Shown here in pieces: positions 1,865 through 32,239 of a stretch of DNA of 64,000 nt. The first letter of the stretch is position 1. Every line of letters begins with the position of its first letter. This DNA comes from Elsinoe ampelina (taxonomy: Eukaryota): positions 2,359,320 to 2,423,319 of the forward strand of contig ML992501.1 in assembly GCA_010093995.1 (NCBI GenBank), given 5' to 3'. The translations under genes and the position numbers were made by a program. The notes under the pieces were generated by a model. The model saw only the letters and a list, made by a program, of their open reading frames with translations. It was not told the DNA's origin and made no database searches.

Positions 1865-3376
1865 TCAATGCTTAGCGTCACGCTGTTCTGCCCATGCAGT
1901 CCATCTGCGGACCACGTCGTCCACAGCCTTGACGCCTTGCTCAGTGGCTTCAATCTCAAACCACTCCCTATGCTCCTTGCCACAGGCCTCGCAGTTCCGC
2001 TTCACTCGTTTGTCTGCAAGCTCCAAATGGATAAGACGTTCAACGCGATGCACATGCGGGACTTTCCTGACTTGATCGGAAGAGCCTCGCGTGGCCAAAG
2101 ATGGACGTGGGCCACGAGGATGGAGGTGCGACGGTGGAACCTCTCGGCGTGGGGAGGGCTGCGGACTCGAGGATATGTATGGATACCAGCGTACCAGACT
2201 GAGCGCATAGCCGCATTGCTGCGTCCATTCTGTCATCCTGCGGTGCACATTGTTGGCACGTCCGATCTTTAGCATGATGGTGCGGTTCGTTGCTGCTTTC
2301 GACGCACGTTTCGAGTAGGTCCTGGCGAGTGAATCCAGGTCGCGGCCTCGACTAGCAGAGTGTGACAAGAGTGAAGAGGCTGTATCTGTGTCTGGCACTT
2401 TGTCGGTGTCGGTCAACCAGAAAATGTAAATATAGCCCTCATCGTCGTGGGGTGAGATCGGTTTTGCTAGTTCGGTGAGAAGTATCGCTGTCGTGTCAGG
2501 TTTTAGTGTAGGTGGGATAAACGAGAGATGTCTTTGGGTCGGGCTCGGTGTCAGTCTCTGGTTCCTTGAGGTAGGTGGCAGTTCGGAAAGGGCTCTCCTT
2601 GGCTGCGGCACGGCCTTTCGCTGTAGGTCTGGCTGTCGTGTATTGGGGAGCACAGGTGATGACTGTGTGTGCCTTTGAGAATGCGTACTTGCGGTAGGAC
2701 GTTGGCGTGCCGGAGGCAGGACTTGTACGCTTGTTTGCATCTCACGCATGGGCGGAGACGGCTTCCTCCTGTGCCGAACGATCTCGTAATAGTCGTCATC
2801 ATTGCTCGAGCTGCTGAAACAGCATAGCTGAGAGAGGAAACCACCTTTGTGCTTCTTCTTTTTGGTAGTTGTATGACCTTGCGATACCGGTAAGCCTGTT
2901 GGGCCGACAACCGGTTGCCGATGTGTATCCCGCCGATAGGATGATGACACGTCTCGATTATCATGTGGCACTTGAGTCGCAGGACTTTGGCCGTGTCGTA
3001 GATCTGGAGATGGGCCATCGATGCCCGAGATACCCAGTCTCTCAACAAGACTGTCCATGCTGGTTCGTTCATTGACAGTTACGAGACGAGATATTCGTGA
3101 CTGAGAATGCTTGTTCGGCTTCGGAGCATCTGTCACGGCCTGATCTTTGTGTTGCCAGCAGTAGAACGCAGCGTCAAGTAACTGTCCCTGGGCACCTTCC
3201 ACAACCGCAACCACGCCAGGTTGCAGGCTCTGTGATCGTGCCGACACGGTCTTTTTCGCTGCCAAAGACCGTCTGCATGGCTTGCCTGCTGTCGTTAAGC
3301 CATGACAGGTCGTTGCTGGATTCCTTGAGTCCGACCTGCCCAGAAGCGCCTCCGGTGTCTGATTATTGAATGACAT
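1865..3376 (-). CDS. MUG113/T5orf172 (DUF1766-type) domain protein
   Basis: 503-aa ORF with TCHG..GKPCRR..YCWQH, GYIYIFW, LKIGRANNVHRRMTEW, RVERLIHLEL and CEACGKEHREWF motifs. Confidence 0.88.
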   Translation of the reverse strand: MSFNNQTPEALLGRSDSRNPATTCHGLTTAGKPCRRSLAAKKTVSARSQSLQPGVVAVVEGAQGQLLDAAFYCWQHKDQAVTDAPKPNKHSQSRISRLVTVNERTSMDSLVERLGISGIDGPSPDLRHGQSPATQVPHDNRDVSSSYRRDTHRQPVVGPTGLPVSQGHTTTKKKKHKGGFLSQLCCFSSSSNDDDYYEIVRHRRKPSPPMREMQTSVQVLPPARQRPTASTHSQRHTQSSPVLPNTRQPDLQRKAVPQPRRALSELPPTSRNQRLTPSPTQRHLSFIPPTLKPDTTAILLTELAKPISPHDDEGYIYIFWLTDTDKVPDTDTASSLLSHSASRGRDLDSLARTYSKRASKAATNRTIMLKIGRANNVHRRMTEWTQQCGYALSLVRWYPYISSSPQPSPRREVPPSHLHPRGPRPSLATRGSSDQVRKVPHVHRVERLIHLELADKRVKRNCEACGKEHREWFEIEATEQGVKAVDDVVRRWTAWAEQRDAKH

Positions 3377-3843
3377 GTTATGCTAACACGACTTGCTGCT
3401 AGAGAACATCTTTATGGCATTATCTGATGACGTGAGCTCGGCCACAATCGTAGGTAGATATATGAATGCAGGAAACATGGTGTTGGCGTTGGCAGCGATG
3501 CACACCAAGGCGGCTGTGTGTGGCTGGATTGTGGCTGGGGGAGTCACGCAGGCCACATCTGCCAGGTTTGACTGTTTGATGTTCCTTGTGGTCAATCAGA
3601 AGAGACCTCACTGCCATGCCGAATGGGTTATCATGGGCAATTACATTGTGAGCCACGTACCATTGATTAAGCTCAAAGTGAGGTATGGTTAAAGAGCTCG
3701 CGGAGCAGAGACGGGAAAGAGGGAGCGAGAGAGCTCGCGTAAAATTGCCTTGTCAGTTTGAGTGGGCGGGCAGCATTTTTTTCGGCAAGCCCAGATCTTG
3801 ATTGCAAGTCATTTCTCCCTCTGCTCTCATCACAACTGACGAC

Positions 3844-4719
3844 ATGGGCGAAGTCGAAGACTTGTCCGATGAGCGGATAGACGAGCTCCTGCGTAAAGCT
3901 GAGGAGCGGCTCGGGAGCCAGAATGGTCAGACAGTGGTCAGATCCGACGAACACAAGTCTTACAGGTTCCCACAACTCGATACTGGAGCGCTTGCCAAAC
4001 CGCACATCCGTCAAGCCAAATATGGCGCAACAGTACTTCGCGAGGGCAACGAAATAGAGCAGGAGAAAAAGAAAGATACAATGCACATGCGCAAGGTGGA
4101 AAATCCTGTCATGATCCGCAAGCAACAGGCTGAGGTATGTCAATTCAACTTCTACACAGCATGGCTAGGAGGAAATCATATCCCAATATTTCTCTTGACG
4201 CAGATTCGCAGTACCGTCTTGGTCACTGTTCTGCACAATCTGAAAGTTCTTTTTATCATAGTTACTCTGAGCCTTTAGCAGTTACACACATCTGTACAGC
4301 CAACATGTGGAGCTCTTTGCTGACTCTCCATGCAGAAGAAGAAAGCCACTGCAGGCGAGCGGTGGTACAATCTACCAAAGACCGATCTTACCCCCGAGCT
4401 CAAGCGTGATCTTCAGATCTTGAAGATGAGAAATGTCCTAGACCCGCACCGACACTACAAGAAGGAAGGAGGCAAGATGAAGGCTCCGGAATACTCACAG
4501 GTCGGAACGATTATCGAGGGCCCCACTGAGTACTACAGCTCGAGATTGAACAACCGGGAACGAAAGAGGACCTTTGTCGAAGAAGTACTGGCTGGCGAGC
4601 AGGAGACAAGCCGATTCAAGCGTAAGTATGGAGACGTGCAGGCAAAGAAGACTAGTGGCAAAAAAGCTTTCTACAAGTCAGTCCAGGCGAAGAGGACAAC
4701 TTCATTCAAGAAGAGATGA
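3844..4719 (+). CDS. FCF2: rRNA-processing protein Fcf2
   Basis: Exons 3844-4134 and 4336-4719, phase-0 GTATGT..CAG intron. C-terminal Fcf2 domain: WYNLPKTDLTPELKRDLQILKMRNVLDPHRHYKK...QVGTIIEGPTEYYSSRL. Confidence 0.92.
4163..4273 (+). ncRNA. Intronic box C/D snoRNA, snR63/SNORD46-like (predicted guide for 25S rRNA Am2256)
   Basis: Inside the 201-nt FCF2 intron: short terminal stem (ggc/gcc), degenerate box C (AGGAGGA 4167-4173) and box D CTGA 4267-4270, directly preceded by TCATAGTTACT, which is complementary to LSU helix 69 AGUAACUAUGA. Confidence 0.8.
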
Positions 4720-4721
4720 AT

Positions 4722-5946
4722 CTAGAGGGAGGACACGATCTTGTACACCATAGCCTGGAGCGAGGTCAGCGAAAGGAGGAACGCAATTTGCCGCCTCGGT
4801 TGACTTGCCTGCATGTCTTTTGCGGCTTCACGGCCAGCTTCGAGCACTTCTTCGTGGTTGGCTGCTCCGCGGCGCAGGAACTCGTCGAGCTCGTCGTTGC
4901 TCATATTCTGGACCTTTGGATCATCGCCTCGCACGACAGGGTCAAGGACGGCTTTATTGGTCACCAGACTGAACCCAAGAACTCTGACGCCAGAATGTCT
5001 CGCAACGATGATCTCTGGTACCGTCGACATGCCCACGAGATCAGCTCCGAGCGTCCGCATCATCCGGCATTCTGCCCTAGTCTCGTAAGTTGGACCGCAA
5101 AGGAATGCGTATACTCCTTCCCTCAGCTTCCGCGCGCTGTTCGAAGGAGCGATTTCCTGCCATGCGAGATGCGCTCTCCTTCTGAGCTCAATGTCATAAG
5201 CATCAGATAGAGGTGGGAAACGAACGCCGAAGTCATCTGCGTTGGGACCACGGAGTGGATGGTATCCGGCGAATCCCGGCAGATTGAGGTGCTTGCCCAA
5301 ATTAGCAAGATGCATGATGCAGACCATCGGCACACTTACATCATTGAGGACTACAATGTCTCCGACGTTATACTCCGGATTCAGGCCTCCAGCAGCATTT
5401 GTCACTGTAGGTGGTCAGCAACAGTGCTCGCAAGCGGCAAGCGGCAAGCGGATCCTGGCGAACCGATCATGGTTTTGACCTGAAGAAGCACGCAGACTCG
5501 GGTGGCAAAGGTAACGAGGTTCATCTCATGGCCTTCGTAGAAGCTGGCAATATCAGTATAGACTATAAAGGGTGAAAAGGATGCCTGACTGAGCTCGTCC
5601 AACCAGTAGCACTACAGGGACTTTGGCCCTTGACATGAACCCGAATACAAGCTGTCCGGCATGTCCAACAACTGTACACTGTCAAACTTGATCCATTGTG
5701 TGCTCTAGTGTCCTGACCTGTTGTCTGCGGGAAATGCGGTATCGTCGAGTACGGCACCTCGAACTTGGTTTCTTGATCAATCACATCTGCAATTCCTCCA
5801 AGCCCAGATCCACAGACAACCGCTATCCGAGGTTGATGAAGTTCCTGATTGCCAATTTTCGATCGGATGAAGCTCACAGCCTCAGTGGCCTTCGTATAGA
5901 TCTCCGACGCTGGCTTTGCCGGAGTTTGATCTGTTACTGCCGCCAT
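4722..5946 (-). CDS. PNP1: Purine nucleoside phosphorylase
   Basis: Multi-exon. Motifs [52 protein letters not shown] and NHEEVL. Confidence 0.95.
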
Positions 5947-19587: not shown

Positions 19588-22500
19588 ATGGATCCGAAGG
19601 CGAGGGCCGAAGCGGACAATGAGCAACTGGCTACAAGGATATTCGCCCGTCTTCAGCAAGACGTGCAAGGATATGAGTGGGACACCAGTGTACCACCATT
19701 CCACTCGGTAAATACACTTGCGGAGCATCTCATGCGTAACTAATCACGTCTTCAGTCCTACGATCACTGGCATGTATGGGGTTTCAAGCTACCCACCAAG
19801 ACTCAAGAACCTTCGACGAACGGCACTGCAAGCTCGACAAATTCTAGGAAGAGCGTCGATGATCTGACAGACCAACCCAAGCCCGAACAGACGGAGAAGC
19901 TATCTGTAGTGGCCAGGGTCTCACGACATGCCCTACGGCTTGAACGAGAATTCAAGCTTGCACAAAAGCTTGCACAAGAGGCAGGAGAAGGGCAGAACAT
20001 ATTCATCAATGCGATCGATTTCTTCCGCCTGCCGCCTCGGCAAGCTGGCGACAGTAAACTTGTCGTCATGATCTCCGAGTCGCCTGGTAGGAATTCGCTG
20101 ATAGAGCTTGTAGGACATTCTCGAACCATTTGTGGTGCAGGACTGACAAACATGTCACAGGTTGAACTTGGCCCTAGTTTCTACCGAGCAAACTCGCACG
20201 ACACGAAAGAGCAAATGCAATGGGAGCGATTCCCGAGGAGACCGAGCCACCACAAGACACCTCTGCGACTATTCATTTCCTTTGCCATAGGCGCGGTCAA
20301 ATGCATAGAGCAATTACATCATGGCAAAGAGATGGTACATGGAGATCTGCGCGGCGATGCCTTTCATTTCAACAAAGACACTGGTGTCGTTCGCCTTATA
20401 AATTTTGGATCTGGAGCACGGTCATTCGAGAATGGACTGACTAGCGCTGGATGGTCCACTCTGACCGCGCAGTTGGGCGTAGAACACAAACTACAGTTTA
20501 TCGCTCCGGAGCAAACTGGTCGCATGCCGGCTGAACCTGACAGCCGGACGGATATCTACAGCTTGGGAATACTTTTCTGGATCATGCTCGCAGATGAGCC
20601 AGCTTTCGCGGGAAGTGGACCGCTGGATATCATGCAGAACGTCCTTAGTCGCCGGATACCACCGATCGACTCTAAACGACCAGATATCCCTGCCGGATTA
20701 TCCAAAATCATTCAAAAGATGACACAAAAGAACATGGCCGATCGATATCAATCTGCCGCAGGACTGCGTCACGATCTTCTCGAATGCAATCGTTTGTTGG
20801 AGGAGGGGGCTTGCGAAGCGCTGGATAATTTCAAGCTCGGAACTCGTGATGTATCAAGCGCTTTCAACCATCCTACCAGATTGATCGGACGAGCGAAGCA
20901 ACTGGATGCGATCCGGAAAGTCATGGAGAGAGCTGCCAGCAAAGCGACTCATCGCGCTGCTATAACCAAGCAAGGTTTGAATGGACTGCGTGCGGCTTCC
21001 ACCTACTCCGGTGATAAGCTTGAACACCTCGGTGACCACATAGGCTCGGATAGTGCCAGCTCGGCTTCACGCGAAAGAGGTGACAGCCAGTTGCCTTCGA
21101 TAAGCGAAGCAAATGCCCCTGAGGGACTCAAGAAAGTGTTCGACTCAAGTCACGACGTACCCGAGCTCGGCATCAATGAGCTGGAGCCGAAACTTTCCAT
21201 GGATAGCAGAATATCAAATCCAAGCATTGACGCCGCCACATCTGGCTCGATGAACCACAGCCACGCCCCATCCAAAGAATCGCTTTTGCGGACGGCGCAG
21301 AAATTGCGGAAAGCAGGACGCTGTGAACTCATCAGCATATCTGGTAGCGCCGGACTCGGCAAATCATCCATACTGCAGATCGTCCAGACACATGCCCGAG
21401 AGCATGGCTATTATGCTCTCGCGAAATTCGACCAGGTCAAGAAAGTACCTTTCGAACCAGCCTTCCGAATCATGTCTTCGCTATTTCGACAGATCTTTTC
21501 GGAGGGGGACGTCAGCACCGAACTCCATCAACAAGTCAGGGCTCTAGTAAGGCCAGTGTGGGCTTCATTGCACACTGCGCTCGAATTGCCTCCTTGGCTG
21601 ATCTCACCTGATCTGCATCACGCAAAGCTTTCCGACGTCGATACCGAGGCCGCTATGCACGAAGGAGCCAAATGCGGTGATAAGGGCAATACCGCTGCAG
21701 ATTGGCTTCATGCTGGTGGCGTCATTCGGGATCGCAGATTTGTTAACACGTTCATGGACTTTCTACGACTCCTGGTAATGCATAAATTCATGTGCTTATG
21801 CTTGGATGATTTACAGTTTGCTGATGAGGAGAGCCTGGACCTCATTCACTCCGTCGTGGCAGCTGGCATCCCCATCGTCCTCATGCTGACCTTCCGGACC
21901 GAGGACACTCTTCCTGCCAAAACACGAGCACTTCTCGACAAAGCGACGTGTGTTGAACTGACTCCTTTCACCGAGGAACAGACGTCCGAGTATGTGGCAG
22001 AGACCTTGCATCGATCCACGCAGTACGTGCTGCCCCTGGTGGCTGTCATTCAGCAGAAGACCGAAGGCATTCCATTCCTTGTTCGTGAGGTTCTGGATCA
22101 GATTCATCGCTCGAAATGCATATACTACTCGTGGAGATCGTCGCAATGGGAGTTCGACCTTGATGCAATCTTCACACGATTTGCAGACACGGAAAGTACC
22201 TCGCTCGCACCGGACGATTACATCTTTCGCAGGCTTGCAGAATTACCACAAGATGCCAAAACGCTGCTCTGCTGGGCAAGTCTGGTGGGAAATAGCTTCA
22301 GTTTCCAGTTGGTCAACAGGGTGATTGTTTGTGATTGTTCAAAAGCATCTCCCATGGAATTCCTCCCGACGAGAGCCGACGATCCAATATCTGGTCTCCA
22401 GTCTGCCCTAGCTTCATACGCGATCATGGCGACCGAAGACGAAGATAAGTTCCGCTTCAGTCATGATCGGTACATGGGTGCGGTCTCCGCTTTACGTGCG

Positions 22501-25500
22501 CCTTACGCCAAGGAAGAAATGCACTATGTACTGGCTTGCGCTATGCTCAAACACGACCCGTGGCGACCATCACGACCGACACAGATCCTCTTTGATCAGA
22601 GCCGGCACATTTGCAGTGCCGTGGCAGTCATCCGGAACCGAGCACACAGCTACAAGCCGTTTCGTCAATTGTTATACGAGGCAGCCGAAACTGCGAGAGA
22701 ACAAGGTGCTCGGCAAATCTCACTGTATTTTCTGAAGCATGCCCTTGCGCTCCTTGGCAAAGACATATGGGACGTCGACGACAAACAAGCAGATACAACG
22801 TACACCGAGGTGCTCACCCTCATGACACAGACCGCCGGATCCTACTGGTTCCTTGGAGATTTCGATTCGACGTCCAAAATAATCACCGAGATATTCGAGC
22901 ATGCCAAAGATCCCGCGGACCGTAGTGCTGCCTTTGTCATTGAGTCACGTATGCATGCGCAGCGTGGCGACAGCATCAAGGCGTTCCTATCGATGAGGCA
23001 GGCACTCGCGGATCTTGGCCATGAAACTTCGCCCATGACTTGGGATCAATGTGATGACGAGTTCAGGAGAATTGCACCGCTATTGGCGGGTCGGGAGCCA
23101 GAGATTAACGCGGGTCAAGACATCGATCCCAAGCTCGTCACGACAGGTGCTGTGATGATAGAATTGCTGTCTGCGGCGTTCTGGTCTGACCCTCTGCTAT
23201 TTTTCCAGATGACGATCAAGATCTTGAACCTTTACCTAGACAAGGGAATCTTTCCGCAGCTGGCTCTGGGATATGTCCACATCGGATCCATCGCCATCGG
23301 ACGGTACGACATGCTTGAATTCGGTCTGCAGATGGGGGCCACAGCGAAGAAAATCATGCAAACGTTTGAGCGAGAGGCGTACACCAATGGCAGAGGCTGG
23401 ACCCTGCACTCTCTTTTCCTAGGTCATATCGAATCATCTATGGATGAGCAACTGCCGATCTTAGCACGAGGGCTGGACAACACAGTCTCTGCTGGAGACA
23501 AGATTCTACAGACACTCAACATCGGCGTCACGGCTGCCTATCGGCTTTGGGCGAGTTACGAGCTTCCAGAAGTCGAGGCATTCATCTACGAACAGAACGA
23601 GCAGATACCGGATTGGAGGAACGATCTGCGAGGTGGCTCTTTCCTCATCGGCGTGCTTCAATATTCTCGTGCTCTACAGGGCAAGACATACTACACGGAC
23701 CCGGCACACATACTGGACGACGATTCTCACTCGACTGTTGCCTACCATGAGTTTGTACGCAAAAAGGCATCTGAGCCATCACGCCCACTCACCATTTACG
23801 ACTGCTATCGTCTCGCCGCTTTGTACCGTTTCGGACACCTTAAGCAGGCACTAGAACTTGGAGAAGCTCTCTATGAGCCCATCAATTCTCTGTTTTGCAT
23901 GCGGTATACTTATTTCGCATCTTTCTTCCTAGCATTGGCTCTCGTAGAGAAGGTGCGGGCTGAACCGGGTTCTCCTGACAACAAGAAGCACTTGGAACGT
24001 GTGAAGACAATCGAGAAGAAGCTTCAATCAGTCAGTCTGGCCAACGACACCAACTTCACTGGGTACCTACAAATACTTCAGGCCGAATTAGCGGAATTGG
24101 AAGGCAGATTCGATGTCTCGATCACCTCTTACGAGGCTGCTGTCACTCACACGGTCCTCCACGGAATTATCATGGAGGAAGCGCTCGCGAACGAGCTCTA
24201 TGCCGAGTTTCTGATCCGACGAGGCTCGACCAGGCCAGCTCGCAGTCTACTTGACGATGCCATCGCTGCTTACCGTCGAATTGGAGCGACGGGTAAGGTA
24301 CAACAAATCACTGACAAGCATGCTTTCACGATGCATCGCACTCGATCGGGCTTGCAGATAGACCAAGGCACTCAGACCATCGAGTCTCATCCTTCGGCCA
24401 CACCCTATAAACTCGGGCGTCACGAAGACGACTTGATCTCGCAGACATCCGAGGAGAGGACAAAAGCCTGGCTTGCTCCCCCTCCTAATTCCTCACCTCA
24501 GCTCGACCGCGATGGCAAGACTAAAGACGACGCAGGCTTGTCTGCTGTGGGTCTGGACGTCATTGATCTTGCGACTATACTTGAGTCATCTCAGCTTTTG
24601 TCGTCGGAGCTCGACGTGGAGAAGCTTCTCTCCAGCCTCACTGAGATCATCACCGATGCTACGGGAGCTGAGATCGGTGGTGTCGCCGTGCGAGACGAAG
24701 AAGATCAATGGAGACTTGCGGCCATCAGGGGGCCTGAGGGCAATGTGGAAGGCATGTACGGTCAGCCCTTGGATGAAATCCCAGACTCGGTCGCGCGTTC
24801 CGTTACCCTATACTGTTTGCGATTCCGAGAGTCTCTGTTCATCCCTAACGTGCTTGAGGATGAAAGATTCGCCGCAAGCAGAGAGTACAAGCAAACCCAT
24901 CCCGACGGACGCGCCATGATCGCGCTACCAATCCTGCACGGCGACAATCAACTGTTGGGCAGTATTTACATCGAAGGTCCAGCCCGGTCTTTCAAGGAGA
25001 ATGCTACTACGGTCCTGCGACTCTTGGTGAATCAGGTGGCCATTTCGATAGCGAACGCCCTTCTTTTCAAGCGCCTGGAGAAAGCAAATGCAAGCAACGC
25101 AGCGATGCTGGAGATCCAGAAGCAAGCTCTCTCTCAAGCAAGAGAAGCTGAGCGCAAAGCCAAGGAGGCAGAGGCCCAAGCCATGGAAAATGTCCGTCTG
25201 AAGGAGGAGGCTGCCAAGGCAAAGTCCATGTTCCTGGCGAACGTCTCACACGAACTGCGCACACCACTTAACGGTGTCATTGGCATGTCAGAGCTGCTGA
25301 AGCAGAGTCGATTGTCCAAGGAGCAAGAAGGTTATGCGGACTCGATTCGTGTCTGTGCCGATACTCTTCTCTCGGTCATCAACGACATTCTGGATTTTTC
25401 CAAATTGGAAGCTGGAAAGATGAACCTATTCAATGTCCAATTGTCACTGAAGGAGACCATTTCCGAGGTCGTCCGCGCTCTTTCATACACCAACATGGAG

Positions 25501-26664
25501 CGGGGTCTTTCGACCATCGAAGAGCTCGAGATTGATGCCGAAATGCTCGTGATGGGTGATCCTGTCAGACTTCACCAGGTCTTCATGAATCTCCTCAGCA
25601 ATGCTTACAAGTTCACGGCCAAGGGCAAAGTCACAGTCCGGGCCATACTCGAATACGAGGACGAGCACTCGATTCAGGTCCAATGCTCCGTCACCGACAC
25701 TGGTATCGGCATCTCCGAGGAACAAAAGAAGAAGCTCTTCCTACCTTTCTCGCAAGCAGATTCGTCCACCGCTCGCAGCTACGGCGGCACCGGTCTCGGT
25801 CTGTCCATTTGCAAGAGCATCATCGAGATCTGCGGCGGTCGCATCTGGCTTTCGTCAGAGGTTGGAGTGGGCACGACTGTGGCCTTTACTCTTCCCTTCA
25901 AGAAGGCCAGCGAGGCTGCAGGCGGTCAGGGTGCTGGCCATGCTGGTAGGTCTGCCGACCCGATGAGCATCTACCGCGTTTCCACAGACGAGGAAATTGC
26001 TGCTGGTAGTCTCGACCATATCGATCTGGCCTCGATTCCCAAGGAGAAGCTCAAGATCTGCATCGCTGAAGACAACCCCATCAACCAAAAGATCGCCATT
26101 TCCTTTGTGCAGAAGCTCGGCTTCAAGTGTTCGGCCTTTGCCGACGGCCAGCAAGCCGTCAATGCTCTCGAGGCGGCTGCCGAAGCGGATGACCCCTACC
26201 ACCTCGTGCTCATGGACTGCCAAATGCCAGTGCTGGATGGGTACAACGCCACACGTGAGATACGAAAACACAAGGACCCACGCGTCAGAAAGGTTCTGGT
26301 CATCGCCATGACTGCCAGTGCCATCCGAGGTGATAGGGAGAAGTGTCTCGAGGCAGGCATGAACAATTATCTGGCCAAGCCGGTCAGGGCGAATGTCCTT
26401 AAGCAGATGTTAGAAGGCTATCTCAACCGAGAAGCGAGCGAGGTCGGGGACCTACAAGGTTTGGCGGATGGAGTAGCGAGAGAGGTAATGGGCGTCAACC
26501 AGGGAGAGACGACGGAGCTGGGTGGGCAGAAGGAGAAGGCGCAGAAGGATAGGGTTGGGGAAGTGTCTCAGACGGATGGCGAGAAGGCTCCACCTCAAGT
26601 CGATACCGACAAGACCGCTTCGAAGAAGAAGAAGGACCTGCCGGTGGGAATAAAGAAGAAGTAG
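19588..26664 (+). CDS. Group X hybrid histidine kinase (Ser/Thr-kinase-like + AAA + GAF + HisKA/HATPase + REC), Chk1/Mak2-like
   Basis: First exon 19588-19707, intron 19708-19755, in-frame intron 20110-20160. Motifs HGDLR, APEQTGR, GSAGLGKS, LDDLQFAD, SHELRTPLNG, NLLSNAYKFT, GGTGLGL, AEDN, MDCQMP. Confidence 0.95.
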
Positions 26665-30047: not shown

Positions 30048-30961
30048 TTAATTCGAAGATTCGAGCGGCAAGGCCATGCCAATCAAGAAACCTGGGTCGT
30101 CGATGTCGTGCTCTTGGTAACTGCATGGCTTAAGCTGATTCGCTTCTTGAGGCTCGTGGATACGTACCTGAGGACTCCAATTGCACCTGGGGGCAACATC
30201 ATAGGCACGCGATCCGGCATTGGGTATTTGAGAAATCGCTTTGCAAATGCTCTCAGGATGTGACCATGAGCGACCTGAATGGCGTTATATCAGCGCCGTC
30301 TCTGATGCACCTACATGAATGCGCTTCTGTCATGCTCACCACAACCACATCAACTGGTTTCTCGCCATGCATGTATGCACGTTGAATGTCTTGAATTTTG
30401 CGGACCAACCCGTCCAGGCGGTCGGTAGCTTGTTCAGCAGATCTGATGCAATTAGCCCGAAGTTGAAAGACGTCCACATTGTTGCCCATACTCGCCACCT
30501 TCGCATCCATCTCTCCAGATATTCCATGGTCGCTCATTGTCAAGGCCCTGTCCCTTCCTCCGGGTGCGAATCTCGTGGTCGAAAAGACCTTCATACGCCC
30601 GATGATTCCACTCGCCGATCTCCTCCGTCACCGAGACTCTCTCATCCTTCTCAGATATCGAGTCGCCAAATAGCAACTGGAAGGTCTGTCGAGCTCTCTT
30701 CCTGGGACTCACGAAGAACTTCGCTACACGACTCGGGTCGATCAATTTCCCGCTACCAACAAGAAGCCTGCCTGTCCCGAGCACCTGCTTCTCGCCATTC
30801 TGCGTGAGCTCCAACTCAGTGATGCCCGTATAGCGTCCATTGATGGTCCATTCAGTCTCGCCTGAGTGGAGTCATCAAAGCGGCTCTGCACAAATGCAAA
30901 GGTTGCACATACCATGGCGGGCCAGGAAAACGCGAGGCGTGCTTGCATCGCCGTCAGACAT
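30048..30961 (-). CDS. SHB17: Histidine-phosphatase-family sedoheptulose-1,7-bisphosphatase (Shb17-like)
   Basis: Manually spliced over 4 introns: MSDGDASTPRVFLARHG|ETEWTINGRYTGITELELT...SPRKRARQT...EW...YEGL...WNIWRDGCEGGE|SAEQ..RLD...|VAHGHILRAFAKR...LS|YQEHDIDDPGF. Fragmented in the ORF track. Confidence 0.9.
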
Positions 30962-31228
30962 TGCAGAGGTCCAGGAGGTCCTTCAAAACCCAAAGCTTGA
31001 CGGGCAGATATATGTGACAGACACAGACAACGAAACAGGTTTGGCGCTTGCCATTCTTTGCAGGCGGGGTCGCAACGTGACTGCCTCACCTCCACGCATG
31101 CACTACATGCACGTTCAGCCCCGCCACGGCGCTAACCTTAGCCCACGGCACGGACGACCAGCTGTGGGATCGCATATATAGTGAACAGTCGTTGCTCCGC
31201 GATAGAACTCACAGCGATATCTTTCAGC
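30962..31228. promoter_or_regulatory. Probable bidirectional promoter between SHB17-like and SBPase-like genes
   Basis: 267 bp between divergent ATGs; TATA-like tracts near 31008-31012 and 31175-31180. Confidence 0.55.
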
Positions 31229-32239
31229 ATGTCCGAGGCTGCGTTACCCCAGCTCATCGCCCACCTGAGCTCACTGATGCCAGGGGACGACAGACGATCA
31301 CTCATCCAGGACGTAATTCCGACTCTGATACTGTCGATCTATCAGATAGCGAAGAAGCTACAAACCTCCCACCATGTCTCCCAAGTCGGCACCGCGAATG
31401 CATTTGGAGACGACCAATTGAACGTCGATGTCATAGCAGAGCAGACCATCCGTCGAGACATCGAGAAAGTGGCATCAATTTCGACAGCAAGCAGTGAAGA
31501 GGATCCCATCGAGAAGCCAGCCCGCGAGGGTAGGACAGACCATTGCGGCGAGGAAACATACACGCTGGCTTTCGATCCGCTCGACGGCTCGTCCATCATC
31601 GCACCAAACTGGTCCGTTGGTACCATCATTGGGATCTGGGACGGCGATTCTGCACTACGATCATCCCCTGAGAGGCATCTGATTGCTTCAATTCTGGGAA
31701 TCTACGGTCCACGCACCACAGCGATCGTTGCGCTTCGCCTCCCTCAGCTTTCGGGTCCAGCCTGCTTTGAGATAGGGCTCGGAAGCGACGCCACGGGCAA
31801 TACAACATGTGAGATAATACGGCCATCCATCGAGCTGAGCTCGCCACCGTACAAGACCAGGTACTTTGCCCCTGCGAATCTGAGGGCTGCAGCAGAAGAT
31901 ACAGCATATATGGACCTAGTCACGAACTTCATCACAGCCAAATACACCCTTAGATACAGCGGGGGACTCGTGCCGGATGTGGCGCACGCCCTCACAAAAG
32001 GCCACGGGCTGTACGTATCGCCTGTGACAGAGAAAAGCAAAGCGAAGCTCCGAAAGCTGTACGAGCTTTCCCCCGTCGCGTTGATCATCGAGGCTGCGGG
32101 TGGGCTGGCATTGGATGCAGGCACCGGCAGGAGGATCCTGGATCAGGAGATCAACGATTGTGATGAGCGTGCGGGTATCATCTGCGGAAACAGAGACGAG
32201 GTCGAAGATGTTGCGAAGGCTTTCGGCATGGCTCGATGA
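31229..32239 (+). CDS. FBPase-fold (class I) sedoheptulose-1,7-bisphosphatase-like protein
   Basis: FGDDQLNVD, SSEE, FDPLDGSS, FAPANLRA, YTLRYSGGLVPDV, AKLRKLYE. These signatures resemble SBPase more than cytosolic FBP1. Confidence 0.88.
   Translation: MSEAALPQLIAHLSSLMPGDDRRSLIQDVIPTLILSIYQIAKKLQTSHHVSQVGTANAFGDDQLNVDVIAEQTIRRDIEKVASISTASSEEDPIEKPAREGRTDHCGEETYTLAFDPLDGSSIIAPNWSVGTIIGIWDGDSALRSSPERHLIASILGIYGPRTTAIVALRLPQLSGPACFEIGLGSDATGNTTCEIIRPSIELSSPPYKTRYFAPANLRAAAEDTAYMDLVTNFITAKYTLRYSGGLVPDVAHALTKGHGLYVSPVTEKSKAKLRKLYELSPVALIIEAAGGLALDAGTGRRILDQEINDCDERAGIICGNRDEVEDVAKAFGMAR

Follow-up and report, generated by a model that had tools for sequence, protein, structure and literature searches.

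In yeast, aldolase joins dihydroxyacetone phosphate to erythrose-4-P or ribose-5-P, giving sedoheptulose-1,7-P2 (SBP) or octulose-1,8-P2 (OBP). Teich et al. (2007) are said to have noted SBPases, the corresponding sedoheptulose-bisphosphatases, in fungi. Yeast Shb17 converts the aldolase-made SBP and OBP to the monophosphates S7P and O8P (PMC11817168, PMC4580311, PMC7164669). The Toxoplasma enzyme of the fructose-bisphosphatase (FBPase) fold, which is the top PDB match of the SBPase described below, has SBPase activity (PMC7164669). The Brucella enzymes Fbp and Bbp can each hydrolyse SBP and fructose-1,6-P2 (FBP), and an efficient bypass during use of erythritol appears to need both (PMC11005471); M. 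tuberculosis has redundant FBPases in GlpX and in Gpm2, a relative of Shb17 (PMC4535450). The peroxisomal xylulose-monophosphate cycle of Komagataella employs SHB17, FBP1, FBA1-2, RKI1-2, and TAL1-2 (PMC4580311), and a filamentous-fungal SBPase of the FBPase fold is listed as up-regulated during microcycle conidiation in Metarhizium (PMC4979188). The literature covered, at abstract level and with few subscription papers, contains no report of a pairing such as the one presented here, nor an assay of a filamentous-fungal FBPase-fold SBPase.

The pairing occurs in the window, by which we mean the whole stretch of 64,000 nucleotides of Elsinoe ampelina DNA that was analysed. A histidine phosphatase gene on the minus strand and an SBPase gene on the plus strand diverge head-to-head with 267 bp from ATG to ATG (30962-31228), and the coordinates and both gene models agree exactly with the arrangement proposed in a sequence-only reading of this DNA. 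The features are as follows.

30048..30961, minus strand: Shb17-like histidine phosphatase gene, 5 exons, 702 nt, 233 aa, without internal stop
30961-30913, 30861-30492, 30442-30340, 30274-30168, 30120-30048, minus strand: phosphatase exons 1-5 of the gene model
30862..30912, minus strand: phosphatase intron 1, 51 nt, interrupting the Gly codon of RHG; GT-AG, with spliced joints
30443..30491, minus strand: phosphatase intron 2, 49 nt; GT-AG, with spliced joints
30275..30339, minus strand: phosphatase intron 3, 65 nt; GT-AG, with spliced joints
30121..30167, minus strand: phosphatase intron 4, 47 nt; GT-AG, with the joint in runs X3 and X4 only
30599..30604, minus strand: codons of His103 and Arg104, which correspond to yeast Tyr102 and Gly103; other runs encode Gly at 104
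30962..31228, no strand: divergent spacer, 267 bp, with four SYGGRG matches and a TATA-like run at 31175-31180
31229..32239, plus strand: intronless FBPase-fold gene of the fungal SBPase type, 336 aa, a fast-evolving Myriangiales duplicate

By sequence, both genes belong to known families, and it is their pairing that is new. The linkage is patchy: a pair of Elsinoe species and a single distant mould show it.

The phosphatase model shows 0 differences from the annotated Elsinoe protein P0230 and places RHG at residue 15, EWN at 100, and HGH at 177. Exact intron-skipping joints occur in contigs from all four public runs (4/4 introns in X3 and X4, 3/4 in X8 and X11), which implies that the gene is transcribed and spliced. 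The four-intron structure proposed earlier thus stands, with every GT-AG intron supported by a spliced joint. These data are contigs whose source runs carry no RNA label; depth and uncovered parts are uninformative, and the genes are not rankable by expression. Pieces of the SBPase gene are present in contigs of the same four runs, which fits transcription, though these pieces may also derive from DNA. The phosphatase contigs of X4 and X11, from two studies, end at 30994-30995, a weak hint of the 5' end of that gene. One X3 contig spans the phosphatase and SBPase genes, which does not demonstrate a single transcript.

The designation of the phosphatase as Shb17-like is borne out by both sequence and fold. 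The protein matches Pfam His_Phos_1 (E = 4.5e-28; 98.7 bits, cutoff 21.7), its best PDB sequence match is yeast YKR043C/Shb17 (E = 4.5e-52, versus 8.6e-25 for Gpm2), and the top five fold matches of its predicted model (pLDDT 92.7) are all YKR043C, complexes with FBP and SBP among them. Kuznetsova 2010 and Clasquin 2011 are reportedly the source of the residue roles in yeast Shb17. We take R12, H13, R69, E99, and H176 to form the catalytic pocket, and Y24, H178, R181, Y102, and H244 presumably contact the substrate, with H244 assumed to reach the distal phosphate. The window protein keeps the positions equal to R12, H13, Y24, R69, E99, W131, H176, H178, and R181; yeast Y102 is replaced by His103, G103 by Arg104 (Gly in other runs), and H244 by Glu213. 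Since the equivalents of Y102 and H244 are not kept, we file the protein as Shb17-like and not as a yeast-type Shb17, and these changes to His and Glu mean that its SBP activity is not assured. A second intact Shb17-like gene, with the usual EWDYGDYEG, lies at about 164 kb on contig C1 of the same genome assembly (G000). Both intact copies are equally close to Lachancea Shb17 (45.7% and 45.0%), the yeast row being a long branch in the trees. A third copy, on C19, is a remnant that lacks most of its middle.

The second gene is, on its sequence features, a fungal SBPase and not FBP1. Its product has the Pfam domains FBPase and FBPase_C, with the motifs DPLDGS (116), FAPANLRA (213), and YTLRYSGGLVPDV (239). 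Among the 43 PDB sequences matched, the best are four SBPase sequences (E = 2.4e-48 to 1e-46), versus 1.4e-22 at best for FBPases, and ranks 1-10 of a fold search with the predicted model (pLDDT 87.9) are all SBPase chains. The window protein carries SEE, DPLDGSS, F.P.NLRA, YTLRY.GG.VPD, and AKLR..[YF]E; SEE, DPLDGSS, and KLR..YE are presumably the metal and catalytic motifs of the class I FBPase fold. The FBP1 motifs YS.NEG, Y..RY.GSMVAD, and GG.F.YP are absent from the window gene and present in a gene on C11, the FBP1 of this genome, which is a separate locus with 25-29% identity. Grouping with ordinary FBP1 was not seen; in the trees the window gene falls with the SBPases, so the earlier SBPase-like assignment is supported by sequence, fold, tree, and the contrast with the genome's own FBP1. 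The identification as ordinary FBP1 was rejected on the PDB matches, fold ranks, separate C11 locus, and motif contrast. Relative to its fungal homologues the window protein has no N-terminal extension, and it lacks the combination of transit peptide and Cys pair found in chloroplast SBPases, the Cys pair of the plant N-terminal loop being absent in the alignment to 5iz3.

The window genome thus holds three FBPase-family members: the window gene, FBP1, and a second, unlinked SBPase on C7 that is 64% identical to the window copy. Two SBPases are likewise present in E. australis; one shares 86% identity with the window gene and the other 72% with the C7 gene, which implies that the duplication predates the split of these species. 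Together with its E. australis orthologue, the window SBPase sits on a long branch (0.5) within a Myriangiales group (support 97; 92/86 in another tree).

The nearest relatives place the window in Elsinoe (Myriangiales). In E. australis, TKX21549.1 (SBPase, 86%) and TKX21548.1 (phosphatase, 90%) are consecutive accessions on equally long contigs, both intact as in the window; adjacency here is read from accession order and the contig record, in which orientation is not visible. SBPases of the Calvin-cycle type are widespread among filamentous ascomycetes (4543 relatives, a figure that comprises SBPase plus the wider family), and the literature covered lists no functional study of them. A metagenome scan took the best 80 of 483 SBPase loci, of which 56 fall in the fungal clade and form 39 groups at 95% identity; in 28 of these groups one flank or both reach 2 kb, for 43 such flanks, the others often being short. 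The remaining 24 loci (L071-L094) lie outside the fungal clade and were excluded from the 39 groups, with the neighbour screen itself covering all 80 loci. A Shb17-like gene is the direct neighbour in one fungal group (L041, L042, L044, and L045), where it lies upstream in a tandem arrangement, 533 bases ahead of the SBPase start. Its product shares 89% identity with a protein of Madurella fahalii, which points to the Chaetomiaceae. Adjacency is therefore not limited to this genome, since it recurs in E. australis and in the L041 group. Outside the fungal clade, L093 and L094 gave no more than a histidine-phosphatase match of 20-23%, some 6.6 kb from the SBPase.

The AU test rejects a single clade of paired SBPases (p = 0.00012) and, separately, a single clade of paired phosphatases (p = 0.0016), so the pairs are not one travelling cassette, and a mobile cassette moving between fungal classes was discarded on these grounds. 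Ancestral flank synteny was also rejected as a candidate: the sole match of the window flanks among the fungal loci is a 135-aa stretch of histidine kinase in L019, at 34%, which is not orthology. The flanks of the C7 SBPase gave no match among the fungal loci. As a separate observation made after the fact, the three known paired SBPases are the only rows of 213 with Lys276 together with Leu or Met at 151.

The EWNHRAYEG motif of the window phosphatase, which the sequence-only reading had singled out as departing from the family pattern, is indeed unusual. NHR occurs in no other row of 115 Shb17-like matches, and of the 107 rows aligned, 104 have Tyr at position 103 and 106 have Gly at position 104. 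The suggestion that the motif marks altered specificity fared less well. A G>C difference at 30601 in three of the four runs, each represented by one contig and X8 at a depth under 5, turns Arg104 into Gly, with X3 keeping Arg. Moreover, the E. australis orthologue, which is also in a pair, reads EWDYGSYEG, so the pairing predates the change in the motif; the E. fawcettii orthologue has EWDYG. As an adaptive change the motif was accordingly set aside as main evidence, given the Gly104 runs and the E. australis sequence. The His-Arg motif appears recent and partly polymorphic, and relaxed selection fits it at least as well as a new specificity would. The phosphatase branch since the E. australis split (0.11 in the window versus about 0) likewise appears to fit relaxed selection. 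Loss of the H244 equivalent is older than the His-Arg motif and common to the other paired copy, with Glu in the window and Asn in L041. Both paired phosphatases fall within a 21-row clade (92/96) that mostly lacks this His.

The 267-bp spacer presumably serves as a shared promoter. It contains four matches to SYGGRG, which we take to be the CreA consensus, versus 1.3 expected (P = 0.037, uncorrected, from a crude shuffle and for one of three patterns), and 3% of 239 window bins reach four. As the 600-base upstream regions of the L041 phosphatase and the unlinked C7 SBPase hold seven and five matches, respectively, these sites give a weak hint of glucose repression, one that would not be specific to the pair. 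GGCTAA, taken here as an XlnR-like motif, matches the spacer once, not above chance (P = 0.155), and comparison of the spacer with the L041 upstream regions gave no shared motif beyond 8-9 base matches with E above 1. To the left of the pair lie a membrane gene with a fungal-rhodopsin domain and a large hybrid histidine kinase, and to the right an ORF without a Pfam match and a NACHT gene. No kinase, aldolase, reductase, transporter, or regulator of the sugar-phosphate pathway was found beside the window pair or the L041 pair. The earlier idea of a mini-pathway loses ground here, as none of the genes that would flank one is present and the two partners lie apart in most fungi checked.

By analogy with Fbp and Bbp of Brucella, we tentatively favour an accessory pair of parallel isozymes that would draw aldolase-made C7 and C8 bisphosphates into the pentose phosphate pathway, a reading that we regard as plausible if somewhat short of probable. 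The two genes would be probably co-regulated 1-phosphatases of sugar bisphosphates. The FBPase-fold enzyme, presumably Mg-dependent, most likely strips the C1 phosphate of SBP, going by its family, and the Shb17-like enzyme, presumably metal-independent, may perform the same step with a broader tolerance that includes OBP and FBP. [quoted passage not shown] The spacer may conceivably switch on both genes together, perhaps upon release from glucose repression. The family placements, the kept pocket residues, the intact E. australis pair, the second and separate adjacency, the Brucella precedent, and the SYGGRG count argue for such a parallel pair; the rarity of the adjacency, its differing orientation, His103 and Glu213, the length of the phosphatase branch, and the apparent partner loss in E. 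fawcettii argue against it.

A real possibility, though we rate it lower, is that the neighbourhood is incidental. In an ancestor of Elsinoe, an SBPase duplicate may have come to lie beside a member of a fast-turnover Shb17-like family; alternatively, an ancient adjacency may have survived passively. The genes would then work independently, and L041 would be a coincidence or leftover synteny. The adjacency is certainly rare, being seen in 1 of 39 metagenome groups and 1 of 15 annotated taxa. In the other 14 (three Ilyonectria, Cylindrodendrum, eight Penicillium, Truncatella, and E. fawcettii) the copies lie apart, a count that rests on copies among the matches listed, with further paralogues possible. 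A comparison across 10 clusters yielded no additional pair from a single genome. The phosphatase orthologue persists in E. fawcettii, but the matches listed include no close counterpart of the paired SBPase from this species, suggesting loss of the partner. The lack of a third pathway gene near the pair, the turnover evident from the C19 remnant, and the drift suggested by His103 and the polymorphic Arg104 all fit independent genes. Against this, random placement (modelled as 2-3 copies in 10,000-12,000 genes, with passive old synteny outside the model) would yield one such adjacency with a chance of only 0.7-1.3% for the 43 flanks, or 1.2-2.2% with the annotated genomes added, and the second adjacency is phylogenetically separate. 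The change from a divergent orientation in the window to a tandem one in the L041 group, with no flanking gene in common, speaks against passive old synteny, and both genes have stayed intact in two Elsinoe species.

The earlier reading had the two enzymes acting in sequence rather than redundantly, and nothing tested here favours this. The FBPase-fold enzyme would take SBP or OBP to the monophosphate, and the Shb17-like enzyme, with part of its second phosphate site presumably missing, would take S7P or O8P to free heptulose or octulose, for synthesis of heptitols or storage sugars or for disposal of a dead-end metabolite. We consider this unlikely. The absence of the H244 equivalent from both paired phosphatases and from most of their clade is in its favour, as is the after-the-fact combination of Lys276 with a hydrophobic residue at 151 in the paired SBPases alone, and a difference between the two enzymes would make it easier to see why both are retained next to each other. 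However, that His is missing from 56 of the 107 Shb17-like rows, the majority of which show no hint of pairing, so its loss is not special to the paired copies; the H178 and R181 equivalents are kept; the C7 phosphate of a monophosphate would be a different substrate from a C1 phosphate; and no reductase, transporter, or kinase lies nearby. The precedents in Brucella and M. tuberculosis act in parallel on one reaction. A two-step module gathered more than once among distant filamentous fungi, in which the SBPase makes S7P or O8P and a Shb17 paralogue without His244 frees the C7 or C8 sugar, strikes us as improbable. If true, fungi would have a hitherto undescribed way of making free heptulose, octulose, or heptitols, and their orphan SBPase would gain a function.

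That the pair is mainly a backup FBPase system for gluconeogenesis is highly doubtful. Yeast Shb17/YK23 is FBPase-active in vitro, and M. tuberculosis uses the related Gpm2 as its second FBPase (PMC4535450). However, an ordinary FBP1 is at hand on C11, the window FBPase-fold gene has motifs of the SBPase and not the FBPase type, and yeast Shb17 reportedly lacks FBPase activity in vivo (PMC7164669). We give next to no credence to an ordinary FBP1 at this locus or to a cassette shared between fungal classes: several database names of relatives do read 'fructose-1,6-bisphosphatase', but FBP1 is a separate gene, the window SBPase nests with Myriangiales copies, and the AU tests reject joining the paired copies.

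The occurrence of an SBPase twice, on separate branches, beside an unrelated yeast-type SBPase lends guilt-by-association support to a role of this fungal SBPase in handling C7 and C8 bisphosphates, and it names a concrete pair of enzymes for assay. The window phosphatase shares the histidine phosphatase branch 1 fold with the riboneogenesis SBPase of yeast (Shb17, YK23, or YKR043C; PDB 3f3k, 3lg2, 3ll4, and 3oi7) at TM 0.84-0.87. It differs in its length of 233 aa, without the yeast insertion before the last strands, and in its genomic setting, with an FBPase-fold SBPase linked to it and a second intact paralogue in the same genome. The SBPases of Toxoplasma (4ir8), Chlamydomonas (7b2o and 7zuv), and Physcomitrella (5iz3) are the best sequence and fold matches of the other gene, whose fungal homologues are annotated as sedoheptulose-bisphosphatase. 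Compared with these known enzymes, the window gene is a long-branch duplicate without the plant Cys pair, and its activity is a predicted one. As in the Komagataella set, extra inducible enzymes would use SBP for sugar-phosphate rearrangement (PMC4580311). In contrast to that set, both window proteins lack a PTS1-like tripeptide at the C-terminus, as does yeast Shb17, and no methanol-pathway genes were recognised near the pair. Brucella and M. tuberculosis likewise combine a metal-dependent bisphosphatase with a metal-independent histidine phosphatase for one reaction in one cell. Both are bacterial, in contrast to the present case, the metal-dependent partner being a class I FBPase with SBPase activity in Brucella and GlpX in M. 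tuberculosis, and the passages cited do not describe the genes as neighbours. If the window enzymes act in parallel, they would be a eukaryotic counterpart of the Brucella Fbp/Bbp bypass, which would be useful but not surprising; if they act in sequence, they would constitute a new pathway.

Within the window pair, the Shb17-like histidine phosphatase carries an Arg104/Gly polymorphism, as evidenced by a G>C substitution at window position 30601 in three of the four runs. The same window also contains a histidine-kinase-type open frame:

19744-26664: open frame of 2306 aa with protein kinase, AAA, GAF, HisKA, HATPase and receiver domains.

A third Shb17-like gene occurs in this genome, on contig C19, as a remnant from which most of the middle is gone (L095:4361-4637, G000:C19). 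Its nearest relative is C1H76_5019 of E. australis, and it borders an AT-rich stretch (25-30% GC) with high TpA that looks RIP-mutated.

The ordinary FBP1 gene, located on contig C11, is directly adjoined by a D-erythronate dehydrogenase-like gene and a class II ketose-bisphosphate aldolase gene (L014:4520-7843, G000:C11), the former scoring 308 bits against NF043036, which is below the cutoff of 325. These surroundings possibly represent a tetronate or tetrose catabolic neighbourhood, one that could supply E4P and SBP. The second, unlinked SBPase, on contig C7, adjoins a flavin monooxygenase gene as well as a dihydroorotate oxidase-like gene of the class 1A type (L012:1468-2499 and 2973-5036, G000:C7).

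Among the relatives, the annotations of P0162, P0170, P0150 and P0200 fuse Shb17-like domains either to ankyrin repeats, as is the case in two genera, or to a P450 or a lipoate-ligase-like domain; such fusions may be artefacts of gene calling. The non-fungal, AT-rich contigs L093 and L094 (25% GC) each bear a divergent FBPase-fold gene, with a distant histidine phosphatase approximately 6.6 kb from it. In L041, a Chaetomiaceae-like metagenome contig group, approximately 3.6 kb separates the tandem pair from an upstream CBM1-bearing esterase gene (L041:1730-2952), which we take to be acetyl xylan esterase-like.
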